Shown one piece after another: positions 14,048 to 56,060 of a DNA stretch of 64,000 nt. Each line of letters begins with the position of its first letter. Position 1 is the first letter of the stretch. Origin of the DNA: a virus (Duplodnaviria > Caudoviricetes); IMG/VR virus record IMGVR_UViG_3300020576_002312, positions 14,187-78,186 of that record; one strand, 5' to 3'. The notes under the pieces are model-generated. The model saw nothing but the letters and a program-made list of their open reading frames with translations. It did not search any database and was not told where the DNA came from. Position numbers and translations under genes: made by a program.

Positions 14048-14335
14048 ATGGCATCAGCTAAAGACAGGTGGGCAATCCTAAATAACATAATCGCTAAAGC
14101 AGGGGGCATAGAAAACGTGAACCTGCATAGTGAACTTGCAAAAAGCGAGGCAGTACTTAACATGCACAAGGCAAATACCGATATGAGTGCCTTGCAGAGT
14201 TCAACTCCCCCACTAAGTTCCACACCAACTCCCCCACAATCGCAAAATTCACTCGGAGATACTGCAAATCCATTGTCAACTCAACCGATGTCTCCTGAGA
14301 TGGGACAAAGTACCAACGGACAACCACCAATGTAA
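14048..14335 (+). CDS. hypothetical protein with a Pro/Ser/Gln-rich tail
   Basis: 95-aa ORF following portal. Confidence 0.65.
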   Translation: MASAKDRWAILNNIIAKAGGIENVNLHSELAKSEAVLNMHKANTDMSALQSSTPPLSSTPTPPQSQNSLGDTANPLSTQPMSPEMGQSTNGQPPM

Positions 14336-16263: not shown

Positions 16264-17706
16264 ATGTCACTTTCCAATCAGGCAATTACAAACAACACCT
16301 TTCAGGGATCTCACGATTCCGCATGGGCGAGTCTTTATAGTCTCGTCAATCTTCCACAGGTATATCCTAATCTCGTACAGCGTTACGGTGCAGGATTTTC
16401 CAGAGAATTTTTCGAGTTCCTTACCATCGCAGGACAGGTAGGTACTTGTAAAGCACAGACAGAAACAACTTTTGAGAAGGGTTCTCCTGAAAAGGCAATT
16501 ACTCTTTCCGCAGCTATCACAGTTGTTGGCGCAGGCGCAACAATCGCTGTATCAATCAACGAGTGGAACGGTGCAGGTCAGTCTTACCTTTCAATAGGAC
16601 AGAAGATACTTATCCCACCTGCCTATATCACAAAGAGTGGTGTAAAACCCGTAGTAGGTCACTGGTATCAGGTAACTTCAATGGGCGCAGTTCAAGCACC
16701 GGAAGCTAACACTGTATTCACATGTACCCCTCTTGATGCACTGACAGTTCTCGCAGTACAAGTTCCATCGGGAACAAGTCTGATGGTAACAGGAGGTAAC
16801 TTTGCTCCTGGTTCACTTGGCGCAAAACCTAAAACAAGCGGATGGTACTCACGTACATTCACAACTGCTATCAAACGTGCTGCTTTCGCTATCGAGGGTT
16901 CACAGCAGTCCACAGAGAGATACACCGACCACCTTATAGGAGGAAGTCAGGGTGTATTCAGTGAGGCTTCAATTCAGGGTGAGTTCGATCTCGATCAGTC
17001 AATAAATTACGAAATCCTTCTTGGTGGAGTAGCAAACAACCTGACCATGACTAACGAGGATAGTGTTGCTAACTCAGTACGTGGTACACTCGGATTCCTT
17101 CCACAGCTTGAATCAAGAGCTTGCAGACAGTATTACACATCTGCTTATAGCGTTCCTGATGTTGATGATATCAAAAAAGCATGGATTTCACAGGGTGTTA
17201 CCGAAACCAATGGTACACTGATTGCGGGGAATGATTTCCTTCAGGGATTAGAGAACAACGCTCTTGACTTCATTAAAGAGTTCTCAGGTGGAACAGACCT
17301 TATGACAGCAATGAACGAGATGAAAGTTGACTTCAAAGTGCTGAAAAAAGGACTCATCACACTGACACTTCACGAGATGAAATCTTTCACCAACCCTAAC
17401 ACCCTTGGTAACTACGACTTCGGCAAGTACGCAGTTGTATTCCCAAGCACACAGGTAACAGTGAGAGAAGGTGCAGGTGCAACCGAGATTAAGATTCCAA
17501 ACGTAAGGCTCGCCTATAAGAACTATAATGGTGAAGACAGAACACGTTGCTTCGGGACTATCAACGGTATCAATGGATTTTCAGGTGGAAATCAGAACAT
17601 TGCTGACGCAAGGGACAGAAAAAAAGTTGAGATATTAAGTGAGTTCATGCTTCAGGTTCATGCAGCCAACCAAATGCTCCTTATAATGCCGTCAACGGTT
17701 TTATAA
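16264..17706 (+). CDS. major capsid protein
   Basis: 480 aa; position; highly biased codon usage; strong terminator after it. Confidence 0.85.
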   Translation: MSLSNQAITNNTFQGSHDSAWASLYSLVNLPQVYPNLVQRYGAGFSREFFEFLTIAGQVGTCKAQTETTFEKGSPEKAITLSAAITVVGAGATIAVSINEWNGAGQSYLSIGQKILIPPAYITKSGVKPVVGHWYQVTSMGAVQAPEANTVFTCTPLDALTVLAVQVPSGTSLMVTGGNFAPGSLGAKPKTSGWYSRTFTTAIKRAAFAIEGSQQSTERYTDHLIGGSQGVFSEASIQGEFDLDQSINYEILLGGVANNLTMTNEDSVANSVRGTLGFLPQLESRACRQYYTSAYSVPDVDDIKKAWISQGVTETNGTLIAGNDFLQGLENNALDFIKEFSGGTDLMTAMNEMKVDFKVLKKGLITLTLHEMKSFTNPNTLGNYDFGKYAVVFPSTQVTVREGAGATEIKIPNVRLAYKNYNGEDRTRCFGTINGINGFSGGNQNIADARDRKKVEILSEFMLQVHAANQMLLIMPSTVL

Positions 17707-17726
17707 TCAGTATAATACTAAACACT

Positions 17727-17757
17727 AAGGGGAATATTTGTTTATTCCCCTTTTTTT
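17727..17757 (+). terminator. intrinsic terminator
   Basis: AAGGGGAATA/TATTCCCCTT plus T run. Confidence 0.85.
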
Positions 17758-17760
17758 ATT

Positions 17761-17861
17761 TATCTTTGTAGTGGAGATAGTCGAGGGTAATTGCTCGATG
17801 ATAAGGGGCAGCCAACAACCCTTCTCCACTTTTGTTGGCATCACTAAATTGTTGGATAATG
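17761..17861 (+). promoter_or_regulatory. promoter plus pseudoknot leader, copy A
   Basis: AGTGGAGA/TCTCCACT, TCGAG/CTCGA, AGGG/CCCT; loop GCCAACAA pairs with TTGTTGGC (17832) or TTGTTGG (17849). Confidence 0.7.
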
Positions 17862-18671
17862 AATAAGATATGTACTGTATGTGGGCAAGAGAAAGAGATT
17901 GATCTCTTTGTAAAGAAGGCTAAAAGTCCAGACGGACACGCATCTGAATGTAAAGATTGCCATAATAAGCACAATAAGGATGTTTATTATAGAGATATAG
18001 AAAAAAGTAGAGAAAAAGGACGGACAACATCTGCTTCTTATAAAAAAAGGCATCCAGATAGGGTTAAGGAAAATGCTAAGAAGGAACATGTAAAAAATAA
18101 AGACAAATATGATAGCCGTATTATTATATATAGGAGTACACATAAGGATGAAATAAATACATCCAAGCGAGAGTACGCTAAAAAACATCCTGAAAAGGTA
18201 AAAAAATGGCACGATAATGCAGTTAAGAAAAATGGGGATAAATATAAGGATACTAATAAAAGATATAAAAAAGAAAATAAAGAACGTCTTAATAAACTTG
18301 AGGTTGAAAGACGTAACAAGAATCCACAATTAAAGATTGCGCATAGTCTTAGAAATAGCATAGGTAAATCGTTAAAATCCAAGAGTGAACTTGGAAGAAC
18401 TCCATCTCTTATAGGATGCTCTATTGATTCTTTTTGTAAATATCTTGAATCTTTGTTTACAGATGGGATGACATGGAAAAACTATGGACAGGGAAATGAT
18501 AAATGGACGATTGACCATACAATTCCCCTTGTGACGTTTGACCTTGAAAACGAAGAACAACAAAAGATAGCGTTTCATTGGAGCAATATGAAACCTATGT
18601 GGCAAAGAGAAAATTTTTCTAAAGGGAGTTTGCATAATGGGGTTAGACATCACCGAAAGAAGGCATCTTAA
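17859..18671 (+). CDS. HNH homing endonuclease, family copy 2
   Basis: CTVC..CKDC; WTIDHTIPL..FDL...FHWSNMKPMW..ENFSKG. Confidence 0.85.
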   Translation: MNKICTVCGQEKEIDLFVKKAKSPDGHASECKDCHNKHNKDVYYRDIEKSREKGRTTSASYKKRHPDRVKENAKKEHVKNKDKYDSRIIIYRSTHKDEINTSKREYAKKHPEKVKKWHDNAVKKNGDKYKDTNKRYKKENKERLNKLEVERRNKNPQLKIAHSLRNSIGKSLKSKSELGRTPSLIGCSIDSFCKYLESLFTDGMTWKNYGQGNDKWTIDHTIPLVTFDLENEEQQKIAFHWSNMKPMWQRENFSKGSLHNGVRHHRKKAS

Positions 18672-18735
18672 TTCCATCTCAAAAATATTGTCTATCTTTG
18701 CAAGTGAAACGAGTATTAATTAAAACAGAAAAGCA

Positions 18736-19749
18736 ATGTTAATTGTTAACGGCAGTGTCCTTCCGGCAAACGCCAATAAAGACCATGAATTATTTCCTAT
18801 GGTCGATGAATATCAAAGGTCAATAAAGAAACTTAAAGCGGATTATCCTAAAGGAGAGATTACTCTCATGCGCATAGGCTATCCGCAGACTAACCCTACG
18901 GGGCTTGCAGAGGATGTTCCCCCTATCTACTTCCCCATGCAGATATCAGACGGCAATGGTGTGTCGTGGGCATACTGCAAGGGCAGACCCGTCATACACC
19001 CTAACGGACTGAGAGAACTACCGAAAGAGGATAGGAGTGAAGCCTTGGGTGATCTTATCTTGCTGGATATAAATAAGAAAGAGGACTACACCTTCTACAT
19101 GATGTTTAAGAGTGGTATTCTCAATAACATATACCGAGTATTCGATCCCGATGGTGACAGACTCAAAGAACTTAGACTTCGCAATGAGAGGCGTGAGGTT
19201 GAGTATGCTATCAGCAAAGGTATGGACGAGAGTAAACTACGCAACGTAGCAGCAGCATGGGGCGTAGAGAAGGCATACGAGAAAGATGTACTACTTGTGC
19301 AGGCAGACCTTGAGACAAAGGTATTCGCTCTCGATGATATTAAAAAGAAAAACCCTACTAACCTTCAGTTGAAAGGTATCACTGAGTTTCTTACCGAGAT
19401 TAAGGCAGACGACTATCTGATGCCCAAGGCACTCGTGCAGAAAGCCATTGACTACAAAAAACTGGTAAAGGATAAGCAGGATCAGAAATATTACTTAGGG
19501 GACGTAGAGATATGTTATATTCCCGTAAATAAGAGGGACGATGAAGTGGACTTCATTGCGGGATATTTAAGACACCCCGATAATAAGGAGAAATGGGATC
19601 AGCTCCTAACGGAAATGATAGACGAAGAATTTATTACAAGCGGAGATAAATATTCGGTGCGTTGGCTGGCAGTTCAGGTAGGAATACCCGTCAATCAGCA
19701 GGCCGAAGCAATCCGCAAAGCTCTACTCGACAAATTCGTGTCGAAGTAG
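18736..19749 (+). CDS. conserved virion protein following MCP (crAss gene-75-like position)
   Basis: 337 aa; position; TATCTTTG 18693-18700. Confidence 0.5.
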   Translation: MLIVNGSVLPANANKDHELFPMVDEYQRSIKKLKADYPKGEITLMRIGYPQTNPTGLAEDVPPIYFPMQISDGNGVSWAYCKGRPVIHPNGLRELPKEDRSEALGDLILLDINKKEDYTFYMMFKSGILNNIYRVFDPDGDRLKELRLRNERREVEYAISKGMDESKLRNVAAAWGVEKAYEKDVLLVQADLETKVFALDDIKKKNPTNLQLKGITEFLTEIKADDYLMPKALVQKAIDYKKLVKDKQDQKYYLGDVEICYIPVNKRDDEVDFIAGYLRHPDNKEKWDQLLTEMIDEEFITSGDKYSVRWLAVQVGIPVNQQAEAIRKALLDKFVSK

Positions 19750-19775
19750 TTTCTGTTCCTCGTTTCCTTTCTTTG

Positions 19776-19807
19776 GGTCTCTGTCACGAGTTGGCGGAGA
19801 CCTTTTT
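19776..19807 (+). terminator. intrinsic terminator
   Basis: GGTCTCT/GGAGACC plus T5. Confidence 0.7.
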
Positions 19808-45726: not shown

Positions 45727-46482
45727 TTATAATAAAGCAGGAATCAATTTAGCCTTTTCAAGAACATTCCCTGCCTGTGAACCTGTTCTTCCCGACACCT
45801 CTGCATCCCATACCGCTTCAGCTAGTGCGTTGTAATCGACACCACCTGATGCTGCGCTATTGAGTTTAGCACCCATTGTGCCACTTTTATTAAATTCTGT
45901 TGCCAATGCGTTCCATACTGCTGCGCCTACGTTAGCCGTGTTGAGTCCTGTTCCTGTAACTATGATATCAACACTCATATCTGCTACTCCCGCAGGCAAC
46001 CCCGATAATCCGCCTGACCCAAGAAGATTAGCTACCATGTCTCCAAATGCAGTAATATTAGCAGAGATATTCCCTTGCCCTATCATATCACAAACCATCC
46101 CTAACTGAGTAATCAGTGACCCCTCTATAGATAGAGTACAACTACCAGTCATATTGGCAATGATATTACCTAATCCTATTAGGATATTGGTAGTAATATC
46201 ACCACTACCTGTCATTGTTATGTTAGCGGAATAGATAGTCATCGAGCCTGATCCCGATGTGCGTAGAGCCATACCTCCTGCCTTTAAGGGAGGAAACCAT
46301 GCTCCTGCACCTGTTGTATATCCTTCGGGAATTGCAGATTTTTTGGATAAAGAGAGAAAGCGTAAAAGGTGGCTACTTGAATTTATACCGAGTAGGCTTC
46401 TTTCCGCACAACCATTATAGCAGTTGTAACGAATAGGGTATTGCGCTATCTGTGTTATGTTGCCAATTAGCATTATTTCCAA
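45727..46482 (-). CDS. structural protein (Gly/Ala/Thr-rich)
   Basis: AIPEGY...WFPPLKAGGM and AAVWNALA...GTMG motifs seen in phage tail cassettes. Confidence 0.6.
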   Translation of the reverse strand: MEIMLIGNITQIAQYPIRYNCYNGCAERSLLGINSSSHLLRFLSLSKKSAIPEGYTTGAGAWFPPLKAGGMALRTSGSGSMTIYSANITMTGSGDITTNILIGLGNIIANMTGSCTLSIEGSLITQLGMVCDMIGQGNISANITAFGDMVANLLGSGGLSGLPAGVADMSVDIIVTGTGLNTANVGAAVWNALATEFNKSGTMGAKLNSAASGGVDYNALAEAVWDAEVSGRTGSQAGNVLEKAKLIPALL

Positions 46483-48077
46483 ACACTAGTTAAATAACCC
46501 TGATACATACAAGGGTTAGGTATTACTGCTCCTGCGAAGATTAAAAATCCTAAACAAGCACCGTCTTTTATCTGTGGTAAAGATGGTAATTGATTAAGTA
46601 AATCTCTTTCTGAGGCGTAGAATGCAGCCGTTAACGGAATTGTAGCAAGTGGTTTACAAAGCACAACATTAACAAAGCCTGCACTAGCCGATGCTGCTGA
46701 GAATAACGCTGAGTCCACTTCTGCTACACCCGCATCCCCTTGTGCTAATGGAAGGAATGGGCCGAAGTTACCCGCAGCAACCCCTGAATGGCTAAGATGT
46801 GATTGAATTGCTGATGCTGTATTCGCTACTACTGCTCCGAGGTTTCTTGCACTAAGCCCCTGAGTACCACTATAGGTCATTGAAAAGTTCTGAGCGTTTG
46901 CACCGTTACTGGTATCAATAACATAATATGCCATAACACCCTTACCATCTCCGTAACGAGCGCAACCAATACCGACTGATACGTTGTCAATAGTTATTCT
47001 GATAGCATCTGATGGGGTTATTGAGAATGTCGCTGTTGATGATACGGCAGTGAACGTCTCAATATAAGATCCCGTCCCTGTTATCGTACGAGCCGAACCT
47101 GTTACACCGCCACAAGCAACCTGAAGAGTTCCTGTTGTAGTGAATGAAGTAATATCATATTCCACGGTATATGTTTTGCCAATAACAGTAGAATAGGTCA
47201 TTGTTTGTGTAAGGGTATTAGTCCCTGCTCCGTTTTTAAGGACGTTGTTAGTTCCATAAGCCCATCCCGCATTAACTGTCCATCCTGTAGTTCCACCTGT
47301 GAATGTGCCGTTATTAATATGCTCTTGATTATCGAGTACCTGAGATGTGTTTAAATCGGTTCTTATTTTCGGATAACAGCCAAGCATATCAACAATCATA
47401 AGCACTGATGGTGCTCCCGCAGCTACGTTAGTCCACGCACCACCATTGATAAGAGACTTAACGGCTGATGATACATTGCCTCCATTATATACATTGAGAT
47501 CCTGTCCTGCTGCATTATAAGGATAGATAGTTGTATCTGCCGAATAAGGGGTGAATGATCTTAATTTCCTTACGATAATAACGTCAATAGTTACGGCTGT
47601 GATGGTTGTAGCACAAGAGATAAGAAATACGTTTGTAGCCCCTGCCGTTACTGTCTCTGTGAATGTTCCGTTAGCTGCACGTGTTACGGCTGTACCACCA
47701 CCAATAGACATTGATAGGTTTCCTGACCCTGCGTAAGAACCCACAGTCCAAATTACTTCATAAGCAAAACCGCTCATACACTCTATATTCTGTTGAAGTG
47801 TCTCAACCGATCCTGAGTTCGCTTTGGTCATCAAGTGAGTTGCTGCCGTCCAAGAGAACCCCGCAGAGAATGTCCAGTTAGAAGCACCCGCAAGGAAATC
47901 ATAGTTTGAAACTAGATTACCATGAAGATAGGCAGGAGGAGTACCCCCAAAGTAAGTAAGGTCATACCATCTTCCGGCTACAACTGTACCCCCCGTATAA
48001 GTCTTCATAAAATCACTACGCCACTGTTGTCCTGCACTCAGCGAGCCTATTATGTCATCAAATGTCTGTATTGCCAT
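46473..48077 (-). CDS. structural protein with two inserted CBM-like domains
   Basis: Paralog of 48082-48948; inserts start LVSNYDF..GASNW and INNGTFTGGTTGW. Confidence 0.65.
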   Translation of the reverse strand: MAIQTFDDIIGSLSAGQQWRSDFMKTYTGGTVVAGRWYDLTYFGGTPPAYLHGNLVSNYDFLAGASNWTFSAGFSWTAATHLMTKANSGSVETLQQNIECMSGFAYEVIWTVGSYAGSGNLSMSIGGGTAVTRAANGTFTETVTAGATNVFLISCATTITAVTIDVIIVRKLRSFTPYSADTTIYPYNAAGQDLNVYNGGNVSSAVKSLINGGAWTNVAAGAPSVLMIVDMLGCYPKIRTDLNTSQVLDNQEHINNGTFTGGTTGWTVNAGWAYGTNNVLKNGAGTNTLTQTMTYSTVIGKTYTVEYDITSFTTTGTLQVACGGVTGSARTITGTGSYIETFTAVSSTATFSITPSDAIRITIDNVSVGIGCARYGDGKGVMAYYVIDTSNGANAQNFSMTYSGTQGLSARNLGAVVANTASAIQSHLSHSGVAAGNFGPFLPLAQGDAGVAEVDSALFSAASASAGFVNVVLCKPLATIPLTAAFYASERDLLNQLPSLPQIKDGACLGFLIFAGAVIPNPCMYQGYLTSVWK

Positions 48078-51655: not shown

Positions 51656-52674
51656 AGTCCTTTAGGGAGTAATTGTTGTTCTGCATATTCCTGATAAGAA
51701 AGCATCTTAAAGTCGTTACTATCTTTAAACTCTCCGTGGATTAAGATACTACCCTTTGGCTTATTTAGTCCTTTGGCTACGATAAGATTCCAGTACGCAT
51801 CCCATGTACTCAAAAGATCATCGGTGATAACGTGTTCTTTGAACGTCACACTTGGGTTTGTACGCCATGCGTTAGGTGACAGATTGAAAATACCATCAAC
51901 CTTAATCCCGAAGTTCTGCCATACTGCCTTTGCTCCTCCGATGAGTTGCATGATGTGTGTTTCGTAGTAACTCTTATCTTCCTTCTCAAAGAAATTGCTT
52001 TTGAGATCCCCTAAGAGAATACGTTCTTTCCTTACCTCGGTCTTAACAATAACCATCTTTGGCTGACCTTTGTTCTCGCCCCTCTGCCAAACACCGTCCT
52101 GTACCTCGGACTTGACAATCTCGGTGGTGGTCACTTTGGCGAGCAGGTCAATAGTCATGCAAAGCCATTCATCACGTTCCTCGTCATGGTAGGTAAGCTG
52201 TGCCTCAACGAGCAGGGGAGTGATCTCATAATCCTCATTGAACTTCATTAAAGCCAAAGTATCTTTTACAGGCATATCCGCAGACTGATTGTTCTCTGAT
52301 GCGAGTTTAGTCATCTTAGCAAGTAAGTCTTTATTGACTCCCTGTTTTAGTGTTATTCCCGCAAAGATAAGGTGTAATGCTGTGCCATACTCGGAACTAA
52401 CATCAAGAAGGTGTCTCCAATTTGGGTACTTCTCTTTCCATCTGTTGATTGCATCTCTCTCGGTGCTTACCATGCCGAAAGCAGAGGTTATGCCCGATGC
52501 TATGACTGCCTTGTCCCCGCAAAGAAACATATAGAAACGATTACCATTTCTATCGTCAAATCGTTGAACGACATATTTGGGTTTAAGGTCGTCTGCGGAA
52601 TACTCTGCCCATGTTGGTTGATTGAGTATCTTCGCAAGTTTCTTACTCTTGCGTGGGGTTGTTTTCTTTGTCAT
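51652..52674 (-). CDS. PD-(D/E)XK exonuclease
   Basis: GTALH, E..L, TIDL, LGDLKS, QL motifs. Confidence 0.7.
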   Translation of the reverse strand: MTKKTTPRKSKKLAKILNQPTWAEYSADDLKPKYVVQRFDDRNGNRFYMFLCGDKAVIASGITSAFGMVSTERDAINRWKEKYPNWRHLLDVSSEYGTALHLIFAGITLKQGVNKDLLAKMTKLASENNQSADMPVKDTLALMKFNEDYEITPLLVEAQLTYHDEERDEWLCMTIDLLAKVTTTEIVKSEVQDGVWQRGENKGQPKMVIVKTEVRKERILLGDLKSNFFEKEDKSYYETHIMQLIGGAKAVWQNFGIKVDGIFNLSPNAWRTNPSVTFKEHVITDDLLSTWDAYWNLIVAKGLNKPKGSILIHGEFKDSNDFKMLSYQEYAEQQLLPKGL

Positions 52675-53015
52675 TATTCTGTTGCTTTTTTAATTACTGA
52701 TTCTGCTTTCTCAACTGCATCATACCATTGCTTTGATGTGGGTTGCCCCGAAAGCAATCCTTCTTGTTCGCACCCGTGAAGGAAAACTAATTCACTGAGG
52801 GCTTCCAAGAGGAGTGGTGCAGACTGAATGAGTCTAGCGTTAGCCCTTGCTTCTTCAACGGTCACTTCTTCCATTAACGGTTCGTGTCCATTCTCATCCT
52901 TGTCGTTAGAACAGATGGCACATACAGTCTTTTCCCCTTCCCCTGCAAATACAAAGTGGGGCTTTGCGTGTAAACAGCATGACCACCATTCTCCTTTACT
53001 GAATTTTGTTTCCAT
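52674..53015 (-). CDS. hypothetical protein
   Basis: ANARLI..AP.LLEAL pattern common in phages. Confidence 0.65.
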   Translation of the reverse strand: METKFSKGEWWSCCLHAKPHFVFAGEGEKTVCAICSNDKDENGHEPLMEEVTVEEARANARLIQSAPLLLEALSELVFLHGCEQEGLLSGQPTSKQWYDAVEKAESVIKKATE

Positions 53016-54307: not shown

Positions 54308-55483
54308 TTAATCTTTCATAATTTGGTCAAGGTAAACATTAGTCAACTGGCGACCTTTGCTCATAACACACCATAAGTTATCCCCTCCTTTTTCAACAAT
54401 ATCCATTTCTTCTACCTTCCCAAATATTCCAAAATTATCGCATAAGTCAACAATCATAGCCTTCTCTTTTGTGGGATGTATTCGCAAAACACGCCCAATG
54501 GCTTGATAATATAGGCGTAATGATCTTGTTGGTCTAGCCATAACTACCACTTGTAATTCAGGGTAGTCAAAACCCACTAAGTAGATACCTACATTACACA
54601 TCACCTTAATACTCCCATCTTTAAACCCCCGTGACCGCCTATCTCTTTCCTTTCCTTCCATGTCAGCATGAACAAAACTAGCAACATCCCCAAGTGCGTT
54701 AGCTAGAGCCTCTGCCTCTCTTGTAAATTTAACAAATACGAGTATGCGAGTCTTGCCTATTTCTAATAATCTTCTGACTACCTTGATTAACTTTTGGTCA
54801 AATGACGACTTATCATAGTATTGTCTTTCGCTTGGTTCGTCATAGTCAGCTCCGGTTGAATTGAGCTTTATCTCTGATCTATTAAACCCGTTTATCTGAA
54901 AATATTCTGTTGGAGACAAGTAACCTTGATTAGCCAAATCCCGTGTCTGCGTAACATGGATTACACGGCTAAATATTCGGGGGTTAGTTCTTGTGATAAA
55001 TTTAAGCATAGTCCCCCCATAGCCGTCAACGCTCATGCGGTATGGGCTTGCCGTGACACCTAGAATTTTCTCTCCAACAACATCAATAAATGTTTTATAC
55101 ATTCCTCCTTTCGGTGATGCAACATCACATTCGTCTATAAGAACGTATTTAAACTGCTTAAAAAATTCAGGATGTTTATATACAGATCCGATAGTCGCAA
55201 GTGTTATATTCCCGATATTTTTCTGTTTCATAGATGCAGAATAAATACAAACACCCTGTATTTGATAATCCATCATCTTATTATAATTCTGCATTAGTAT
55301 CTCTCGACTCGGTTGAAAAACAATGAGTGGAGCATCAACGGTACGTGCCATCTCTGCTAAGATTAAGCTTTTCCCAGCCGAAGTAGGAAGAATCATTAAG
55401 ACAGGTTTTTTTTGATTCTTATCCCTGAAATAAGCTACACCTGCATTTACGGCTTGTTGTTGATATTCTCGAAGGATATACAT
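54308..55483 (-). CDS. superfamily 2 helicase (ResIII/RadD-like)
   Basis: LREYQ, PTSAGKS, IDECD, TASP, GFDYP, QAIGRVLR. Confidence 0.9.
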   Translation of the reverse strand: MYILREYQQQAVNAGVAYFRDKNQKKPVLMILPTSAGKSLILAEMARTVDAPLIVFQPSREILMQNYNKMMDYQIQGVCIYSASMKQKNIGNITLATIGSVYKHPEFFKQFKYVLIDECDVASPKGGMYKTFIDVVGEKILGVTASPYRMSVDGYGGTMLKFITRTNPRIFSRVIHVTQTRDLANQGYLSPTEYFQINGFNRSEIKLNSTGADYDEPSERQYYDKSSFDQKLIKVVRRLLEIGKTRILVFVKFTREAEALANALGDVASFVHADMEGKERDRRSRGFKDGSIKVMCNVGIYLVGFDYPELQVVVMARPTRSLRLYYQAIGRVLRIHPTKEKAMIVDLCDNFGIFGKVEEMDIVEKGGDNLWCVMSKGRQLTNVYLDQIMKD

Positions 55484-55956
55484 TAGTCCTTGAAATTTAG
55501 GTTTGCAAATTCCCCATGAAATATACGAGCTGCGTCATCATAAGCCCTTGCTGCTTCTTCTTCTATCTTGAATGCGCCAAGATAAATTCTTTCCCCAAAA
55601 ACACGAATTTTAGCGTGAAAACTACCACACTTCCTTACCTCAACGCCTAAATACTTTGACCTACCCCATCCTTTTATGTTGACTGCGTTTTCTCTCCTAT
55701 TACATATTCTTAGATTACTCCGTTGATTATTCAGTTTATTTAAATCCTTATGATCTACCTCAAGGTCAACTGGACAATCCATAATTTGTCGGTGCATTAA
55801 TACTAATTTACGCCCCTTATGTGGCCCATGAGGCTGTCTCGCTGCATAAAAACTATCCCTATGTTTAGTGGCTAACCACTTCCATTGGCTTAACCAGTCA
55901 AAGTCGCTATCATCAACTAATGCTACCTGTCCTTGTGTTAATGGAATCTCTTTCAT
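55483..55956 (-). CDS. HNH-AP2 homing endonuclease, copy 1
   Basis: VDHKDLNKLNNQRSNLR; YLG.F..EEEAARAYD.AA...GEFA.LNF. Confidence 0.9.
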   Translation of the reverse strand: MKEIPLTQGQVALVDDSDFDWLSQWKWLATKHRDSFYAARQPHGPHKGRKLVLMHRQIMDCPVDLEVDHKDLNKLNNQRSNLRICNRRENAVNIKGWGRSKYLGVEVRKCGSFHAKIRVFGERIYLGAFKIEEEAARAYDDAARIFHGEFANLNFKD

Positions 55957-56060
55957 TTTATTGTGTCGTATTAGATATGTGTCGAAAAATGTGAGGGAAA
56001 GAACTCGACACTCGTCCGTATCATCGGGTAGCTATATCCGACTATTCCCTCACAAATATA
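55957..56060 (-). promoter_or_regulatory. promoter plus pseudoknot leader, copy B
   Basis: GTGAGGGAA/TTCCCTCAC, TCGG/CCGA, GGAC/GTTC; loop GTGTCGA pairs with TCGACAC or CGACAC near the ATG. Confidence 0.7.

Follow-up and report, generated by a model that had tools for sequence, protein, structure and literature searches.

The locus considered here raises the question of why, within a single phage genome, two nuclease genes lying on opposite strands should both be preceded by the same folded leader, and of what such a leader does for the genes that stand behind it. The window, that is, the whole stretch of DNA that was analysed, comprises 64,000 nucleotides (positions 14,187 to 78,186 of the IMG/VR record IMGVR_UViG_3300020576_002312) and carries tailed-phage PHROG matches to a large terminase (phrog_6681), a portal (phrog_6547) and virion proteins (phrog_13704 and phrog_14478). 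DNA near-identical to it is found in wastewater and river metagenomes, a search for runs that contain the phage gave no RNA data set, and its capsid-region protein has no tblastn match among isolate phages. A tRNA gene at 2208-2279 on the plus strand (54 bits) is its sole Rfam match at the gathering score.

Both leaders are present where the sequence-only reading had located them, and all the pairings that it described hold in the sequence of the two copies. They share a layout in which a -33 TTTG and a -7 box of the form TAnnTTTG are followed, 1-2 nt further on, by the helix P1, then by UA, the helix P2, GAUA, the helix P3 and the 3' strand of P1; downstream, both copies continue with a short U-rich linker, a first target (T1), an A-rich spacer of 9-10 nt, a second target (T2) and the ATG, the whole measuring about 60 nt plus a 35-nt tail. 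In copy A, on the plus strand, the -7 box, of the Bacteroidota sigma-A type, lies at 17761..17768 and ends 1 nt before P1, and the three-way junction as a whole occupies 17770..17830 (73.3 bits with covariance model R2 and 69.4 bits with R3). Read from the sequence, P1 is formed by 17770-17777 with 17823-17830, UA lies at 17778-17779, P2 pairs 17780-17785 with 17794-17799 around a loop (17786-17793) that contains AAUU, GAUA lies at 17800-17803, and P3 pairs 17804-17807 with 17819-17822. The P3 loop (17808-17818) contains an anti-element (17811-17818) with which T1, the putative decoy site (17832..17839), can form 8/8 Watson-Crick pairs and to which T2 (17849..17855) is complementary at 7/7 positions. 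T2 ends 3 nt before the ATG and is flanked by A-rich positions, -13 to -11 on one side and -3 on the other. The gene that follows (17859..18671, plus strand) encodes a nuclease of 270 aa with zinc-finger and endonuclease-VII-like character, which matches phrog_1035 (1.6e-14) and has no Pfam match. Upstream, the -33 TTTG of this cassette promoter (17737-17740, plus strand) sits in the loop of a strong intrinsic terminator of the preceding structural gene (17729..17757, plus strand, recognised from the sequence and from terminator-like alignments), terminator and promoter overlapping here.

Copy B lies on the minus strand, with its -7 box at 56053..56060 and its three-way junction, supported by sequence, fold and covariance models, at 55992..56052. 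P1 pairs 56052-56045 with 55999-55992, and P2 pairs 56042-56038 with 56027-56023 with a 6-nt palindrome in the loop between the two strands (56037-56028). The anti-element (56011-56005) lies within the P3 loop (56013-56005); T1, the putative decoy site, recognised by its complementarity to this loop, lies at 55979..55985, and T2 (55963..55968) ends 6 nt before the ATG at 55956. The nuclease encoded behind it (55483..55956, minus strand) has 157 aa, an HNH_3 domain, a weak AP2 match and a match to phrog_99; the two proteins belong to different families, in agreement with the earlier claim that they are unrelated.

The pattern formed by the two conserved boxes occurs twice in the window, where 0.02 occurrences are expected, and scanning the whole 78-kb record with the pattern and with model R3 yields two copies in all, none beyond A and B. 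A third hit of the first model at 47019-47064 on the plus strand (15.5 bits, E 0.07) lies antisense within an ORF of 534 aa (46473-48077), is not found by R3 and is probably due to chance. Since MAFFT failed to bring P1 and P3 of the leaders into register, model R1 was seeded from copy A alone, while R2 was built from five and R3 from 19 sequences. The covariance-model search that the sequence-only reading had proposed recovers the same fold in many other phages, and pattern scans together with models R1-R3 give 22 instances parsed as distinct. Over IMG/VR the exact two-box pattern returned nearly only chance matches in coding DNA; tightened with the promoter box or with AGGG, it returned the first true relatives, and a stricter scan added three more leaders with the same plan and different helices. 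The leader-bearing phages come from gut and freshwater and are of Bacteroidota type, and in one related group 24 of 32 records carry one to three leader copies. A pattern scan of the bacterial genome collection gave no true match, R3 gave nothing among the top candidates scored per genome in 151 sampled Bacteroidota genomes, and the isolate phage collection contained no DNA match to leader A and, for leader B, AT-rich promoter-like stretches only. In the literature, no such leader was found for homing endonucleases or for crAss-like phages.

That the element is a structured RNA follows from how it varies. A three-way junction is the predicted fold of the core in both copies (z about -2.6), and across the 18 distinct rows of alignment A7, from which the covariation counts are taken, P1, P2 and P3 all covary, 93% of the cells being paired and 13 of the 18 pairs showing double changes. 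None of 500 shuffles matches the observed covariation, a comparison that overstates independence, the instances being partly related; in control structures whose 3' partners were slid by 1-3 columns, pairing drops to 43-60%. Scored on the sense strand the element reaches 73 bits, against 8 bits on the antisense strand, and G-U pairs are frequent in the helices, from which it follows that the element is an RNA read on the strand of its gene. The earlier description of a covarying, strand-specific three-helix leader with a loop-to-tail pseudoknot is thus supported. Not so the "identical cores" TAGTCG and CGATGATA that it had singled out: these are largely P2 stem, and in relatives they are replaced by other complementary pairs. 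The only conserved junction letters are UAG, GA-N-AAG and the junction-closing pairs; kept in detail are the A-U pair that closes P1, the UA, the G that opens P2, GA-N-AA and one or more U between P3 and P1. The outermost two pairs of P1 are the least kept, pairs 1 and 2 being unpaired in 4/18 and 7/18 sequences, respectively, and the outer pairs 1-3 still covary in part. A leader peptide starting at an AUG inside the conserved box of A and B was also considered and rejected, the AUG being missing in many relatives.

The second regularity concerns the P3 loop and the two sites that it can reach. A second strong site for the loop is present in its own tail in 86% of the 22 instances, against 4.5% when the loop is matched with the tails of other instances. 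The distance from P1 to T1 is 1-12 nt and that from T2 to the ATG 1-6 nt; in leaders of the L271 type the second site overlaps the AUG itself, and in L313 it is just 4 nt long. The mean duplex energies, -10.0 kcal/mol for T1 and -9.5 kcal/mol for T2, are consistent with the earlier proposal that the loop could pair with either a decoy or the start region, both complementarities being present. In gut phages, alleles X and Y have loop, T1 and T2 changed together. Where T1 and T2 differ within their paired part (L118, L173, L264, L274 and allele Y), all the differences are wobble-compatible with the loop, C or U standing opposite G, or G or A opposite U, with both pairings surviving, which is not something that a DNA operator would require. 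Around T2, position -13 is A in 20 of the 22 instances, and -12, -11, -3 and -2 are A-rich too. Such A-rich positions are reported to drive initiation in Bacteroidetes, which lack Shine-Dalgarno sequences, and those around T2 match this signal (PMC7366714). As hosts of this type do not use a Shine-Dalgarno, loop and targets would be free to drift as long as their complementarity is kept, a pattern that argues for translational occlusion.

Comparison of empty and occupied insertion sites confirms that the leader belongs to a mobile unit, as the sequence-only reading had suspected. After a tape-measure-like gene, the empty state of one site is a gap of 11-58 nt before the next conserved gene, and in the occupied state the same site holds an insert of 800-1280 nt consisting of promoter, leader and one gene. 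That gene codes either for an AntA/KilAC antirepressor or for an HNH nuclease, the latter assigned to phrog_559 or phrog_953. At other sites the genes behind the leader encode NUMOD4-HNH_3 nucleases, an HTH_36/DnaD_N protein and a T5orf172 protein. The leader is not restricted to HNH genes, but it always precedes small accessory genes for DNA-binding or DNA-cutting proteins. A single leader allele is found before Ant proteins with differing N-terminal parts, and the leader is missing where unrelated phages carry relatives of nuclease A or B. This variety of genes behind the leader, together with its absence from those nuclease relatives, marks it as a portable module that does not follow a protein family. 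Partial loss is also seen: in L210 (4622-4740) and L213, from gut phages, promoter, three-way junction and T1 are kept, T2 and the Ant gene are gone through a deletion at a short TAAA repeat, and the leader now fronts the next backbone gene.

Around copy A itself, two runs (contigs over window 16500-19800) contain two coexisting strains that differ by about 12% in the flanks. The nuclease-A region (17337-18705) is covered by one contig only, whose depth is roughly half of that of the flanks taken together, and a contig of the same lineage as the window joins 17505 to 18693; coverage and junction together are a weak hint of a variant without nuclease gene A in the lineage of the window. In a third run, the leader-A region is diverged and its P2 loop is longer by one nucleotide, inserted at 17791. 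One of the IMG/VR contigs with a leader (L139:5790-5846) terminates in an Illumina adapter within the nuclease gene, an assembly artefact. At the other locus, the stop codon of gene B shares 1 nt with the start codon of the helicase gene (55483, minus strand), and in L127 (2620-2623) and L212 the stop codon of the nuclease gene likewise overlaps the start codon of the next backbone gene, there one of the tail region; such an overlap makes the insertion of the cassette seamless and may allow translational coupling to the next gene. Three leader copies are present in the cultured Bacteroides phage C3_41T2LP (OR296439.1, host B. uniformis), before genes for an antirepressor, an I-HmuI-like endonuclease and an HTH protein, respectively. 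In the same record, the ORF after the HTH gene (51993-52841) is annotated as "preneck appendage protein"; in related records the HTH gene and the following ORF form one 273-aa replication-initiator-like protein (phrog_678), which suggests that the gene of OR296439.1 is either split or mis-annotated.

Is this a known RNA? In the window, the Rfam scan gives no leader match at the gathering threshold, and copies A and B match no family, RF02996 included, at E up to 10. The closest entry is nevertheless RF02996, int-alpA, against which the best of 16 leaders, L284, scores 20.3 bits (gathering score 35.8) and aligns to the consensus with the same order of parts and the same junction letters. The family, which is typed "Gene; sRNA" in Rfam, reportedly stems from a survey of 224 motifs, and its name places it between the integrase and alpA genes of proteobacterial integrative elements. 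It is not discussed in the main text of the 2017 survey (PMC5737381), and in the publications that name it we found no function given and none tested. For comparison, 151 Gammaproteobacteria were searched, of which 11 genomes exceeded the cut-off, and 14 copies were fetched (L325-L338). In every one of them the P3 loop carries an anti-Shine-Dalgarno resembling CCUU; the position of T1, 5-10 nt after P1, is taken by a Shine-Dalgarno look-alike, and the real Shine-Dalgarno lies about 13 nt beyond it, 5-9 nt before the start codon, in the position of T2. In these copies a -10-like box lies about 7 nt ahead of P1, which places the helix at the 5' end of the RNA. R3 gave no match at 13 of the 14 loci, and L336 is the single bridging sequence, with 33.6 bits against RF02996 (just below the cut-off) and 26.8 bits (E 1.3e-5) against R3. 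The assumption that the motif was no characterised Rfam family therefore stands insofar as no family reaches its threshold, but it fails insofar as the leader appears to be a divergent relative of one already catalogued. Because both the RF02996 score threshold and the genomic setting speak against membership, we do not file the element in the family; rather, it can be read as a divergent, AT-rich, Shine-Dalgarno-free branch of the int-alpA class in phages of Bacteroidota. Conversely, the fetched copies argue that the Rfam "sRNA" int-alpA would itself be a cis-acting leader.

These observations lead to the reading that we consider likely, namely that a three-way-junction leader of the int-alpA class gates the translation of the cassette gene by directing its P3 loop either to the decoy T1 or to T2 in the start region. 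The strongest argument for translational control comes from the cross-phylum comparison: in hosts that use a Shine-Dalgarno, T2 is the Shine-Dalgarno, and in the others T2 may be any word of the landing region, with the loop following it. The cassette would be self-contained, with a promoter of the host type, the leader and the gene. RNA synthesis would start at or within P1, and the junction, through UA, GA-N-AA and the closing A-U pairs, would present the P3 loop. When the loop is on T1, directly after P1, a pseudoknot would form on the decoy and the start would be free; when it is on T2, in the region where the ribosome lands, initiation would be blocked, and the amount of a potentially harmful DNA-binding or DNA-cutting protein would in this way be set or gated. 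T1 is as strong as T2 and is transcribed first, so that the design looks like a two-state switch. We infer the effect on translation from this arrangement, and the equal energies of the two sites mean that the default, on or off, is not readable from sequence alone. Candidate triggers are a slow change of fold once the RNA has been made, a factor that acts on the conserved junction, the transcript's 5' end, and dimerisation.

The Bacteroidota sigma-A -7 box, with the consensus TAnnTTTG (PMC7366714, PMC9723704), occupies positions -12 to -5 (PMC9723704), which places the predicted start near P1 position 4 and leaves 5-6 inner pairs; the outermost P1 pairs may therefore precede the start of the transcript. 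From this one could derive a gating by promoter position, by analogy with phage T4, in which read-through RNA with a full P1 would be silent and RNA from the cassette promoter, without the outer P1 strand, would be translated. In all instances no more than 0-2 nt separate the box from P1, and the outer pairs 1-3 covary in part, as this scheme would have it, but five or six inner pairs of P1 would be left, pairs 1 and 2 are themselves unpaired in the 4/18 and 7/18 sequences mentioned above, copies A and L139 stand behind a terminator with little read-through to be expected, and P1 of int-alpA likewise sits at the 5' end of its transcript; we regard it as quite unlikely. A molecule acting at the junction, whether a small metabolite or a phage or host protein that would stabilise the T1 pseudoknot and free T2, is only slightly easier to accept, and still unlikely. 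The conservation of some twelve junction nucleotides in two phyla speaks for it, and the isoenergetic design of T1 and T2 would suit a switch of this kind, but the conserved junction may do no more than point P3 towards the 3' tail, no binding partner is evident and the downstream genes have no common metabolic or transport theme. The sequence-only reading had also allowed for ligand sensing or catalysis, and nothing points to either. A self-cleaving ribozyme or another catalytic RNA, for which a small junction with conserved unpaired nucleotides in phage DNA might be a reminder, is the hardest of all to credit: no ribozyme family of Rfam is matched at E up to 10 (hammerhead, twister, twister-sister, pistol, hatchet and HDV-like), the junction strands are unlike the hammerhead core and no conserved context of a cleavage site was seen. 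Hardly more credible is control at the level of DNA, in which the variable word, present twice in direct and once in inverted orientation, would be an operator bound by the encoded protein for autorepression. All the downstream products bind or cut DNA and the words differ from cassette to cassette, in keeping with such an operator; against it, G-U is tolerated and C-A is not, the signal is strand-specific (73 vs 8 bits), one leader allele serves Ant proteins with different N-terminal domains, the inverted copy is always in the P3 loop of a covarying fold, and the proteobacterial word is simply the Shine-Dalgarno.

Dimerisation deserves a more detailed discussion in view of the P2 loops. A palindrome of at least 4 nt is present in 17 of 18 distinct P2 loops and one of at least 6 nt in 10 of 18, where 2000 shuffles give a mean of 1.9 and a maximum of 7; a palindrome of at least 6 nt is found in only 1 of 21 P3 loops. 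There are at least seven different P2 hexamers, of the form U-NNNN-A and differing by symmetric double changes; within the 8-nt loop two residues precede the hexamer, which cannot pair inside the loop. Leaders L314 (G038:42725-42785) and L316 (G019:14519-14580) are identical in P1, the P2 stem, P3, T1 and T2 and have the palindromic P2 loop swapped; their nucleases diverge after about residue 30. These varying palindromes suggest homodimers that would meet tip to tip through kissing loops. An explanation in terms of RNA dosage, which we hold to be possible though on balance improbable, would have the P2 loops of two leaders kiss, the P3 loop of one molecule silencing T2 of its partner while each molecule's own loop rests on T1. 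The partners could be two like leaders, or a full mRNA together with a short leader RNA produced by attenuation, and translation would fall as transcript accumulates during replication of the phage DNA. The excess of palindromes over shuffles with symmetric changes of the hexamers, the loop swapped between L314 and L316 in otherwise identical leaders, the usually different palindromes of copies within one genome, the two targets available to each loop and the U-rich tract directly after P1 are all in its favour. On the other hand, the P2 loops of allele Y and of most proteobacterial int-alpA copies are short and not palindromic, two leaders of one genome (G022, G023) have the same loop, and a terminator after P1 would cut off the downstream tail genes too. 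More doubtful still is the extended form of this idea, a programmable, Shine-Dalgarno-independent and self-recognising switch in which private P2 palindromes would pair like leaders, the P3 loop would close the start of the partner and T1 would park the leader's own loop. If it were true, each cassette would measure the dosage of its own transcript and cap a toxic product, with no cross-talk within the genome.

For the gating of translation through T1 and T2, which remains our preferred reading, the wider meaning lies in the freedom of the words involved. Loop and target words that are arbitrary and yet co-vary would constitute natural evidence for occlusion of the ribosome landing site by RNA-RNA pairing, as opposed to recognition of a ribosome-binding motif. 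The design of an orphan Rfam entry appears here in phages of hosts that lack Shine-Dalgarno sequences, in a leader that is small, portable and reprogrammable and that heads selfish nuclease, antirepressor and HTH genes in many Bacteroidota phages. It could become a translation-control part for Bacteroides engineering, and the three copies of C3_41T2LP, in a cultured pair with B. uniformis, make the model directly testable.

Several known systems help to place this leader. In phage T4, homing endonuclease genes (I-TevI, seg/mob) are controlled by translational hairpins over the Shine-Dalgarno, with a promoter adjoining or within the structure. The likeness is that a selfish nuclease would be kept down by a leader RNA that hides the ribosome-binding region, with the promoter next to or inside the structure; the T4 hairpins, however, are simple, without a conserved three-way junction, a decoy, a loop-to-tail pseudoknot or a portable family that extends across unrelated genes. 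In the preQ1-II, SAM-II and guanidine-III riboswitches, a pseudoknot hides or frees the ribosome-binding site, and there too a loop-to-tail pseudoknot decides the access to the initiation region; unlike the phage leader, for which no ligand is indicated, they bind a metabolite, head metabolic or transport genes and have no competing decoy target. The P2 loops recall the dimerisation initiation site of HIV-1, the kissing loop of the retroviral genome, in having a 6-nt self-complementary word in a loop of 8-9 nt, two mostly purine residues before it and a sequence that varies among lineages and is still palindromic; here, in contrast, the loop is part of a phage mRNA leader, dimerisation is a conjecture and some members of the family have no palindrome. 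The closest likeness is to int-alpA, with which the leader shares the order of P1 (8 bp), UA, a P2 starting with G, GA-N-AA, P3, 1-2 pyrimidines, the 3' strand of P1 and a U-rich tail, and, to judge from the 14 copies rather than from the literature, a P3 loop whose complement occurs twice, immediately downstream of P1 and in the ribosome-binding region. Some P2 loops are common to both, among them the pair of short loops seen in alleles X and Y as well as one 6-nt palindrome, and both have P1 close behind a promoter box and reside in mobile DNA. They differ in that the phage leaders are AT-rich, with P2 loops mostly of 8 nt that contain a palindrome, and, in phage records that look lytic, stand before genes for nucleases and for Ant, T5orf172 and HTH proteins; moreover, loop and targets are CCUU and GGAGG in int-alpA, whereas in the phages, whose hosts are of the Bacteroidota type without a Shine-Dalgarno, they are free words that co-vary.
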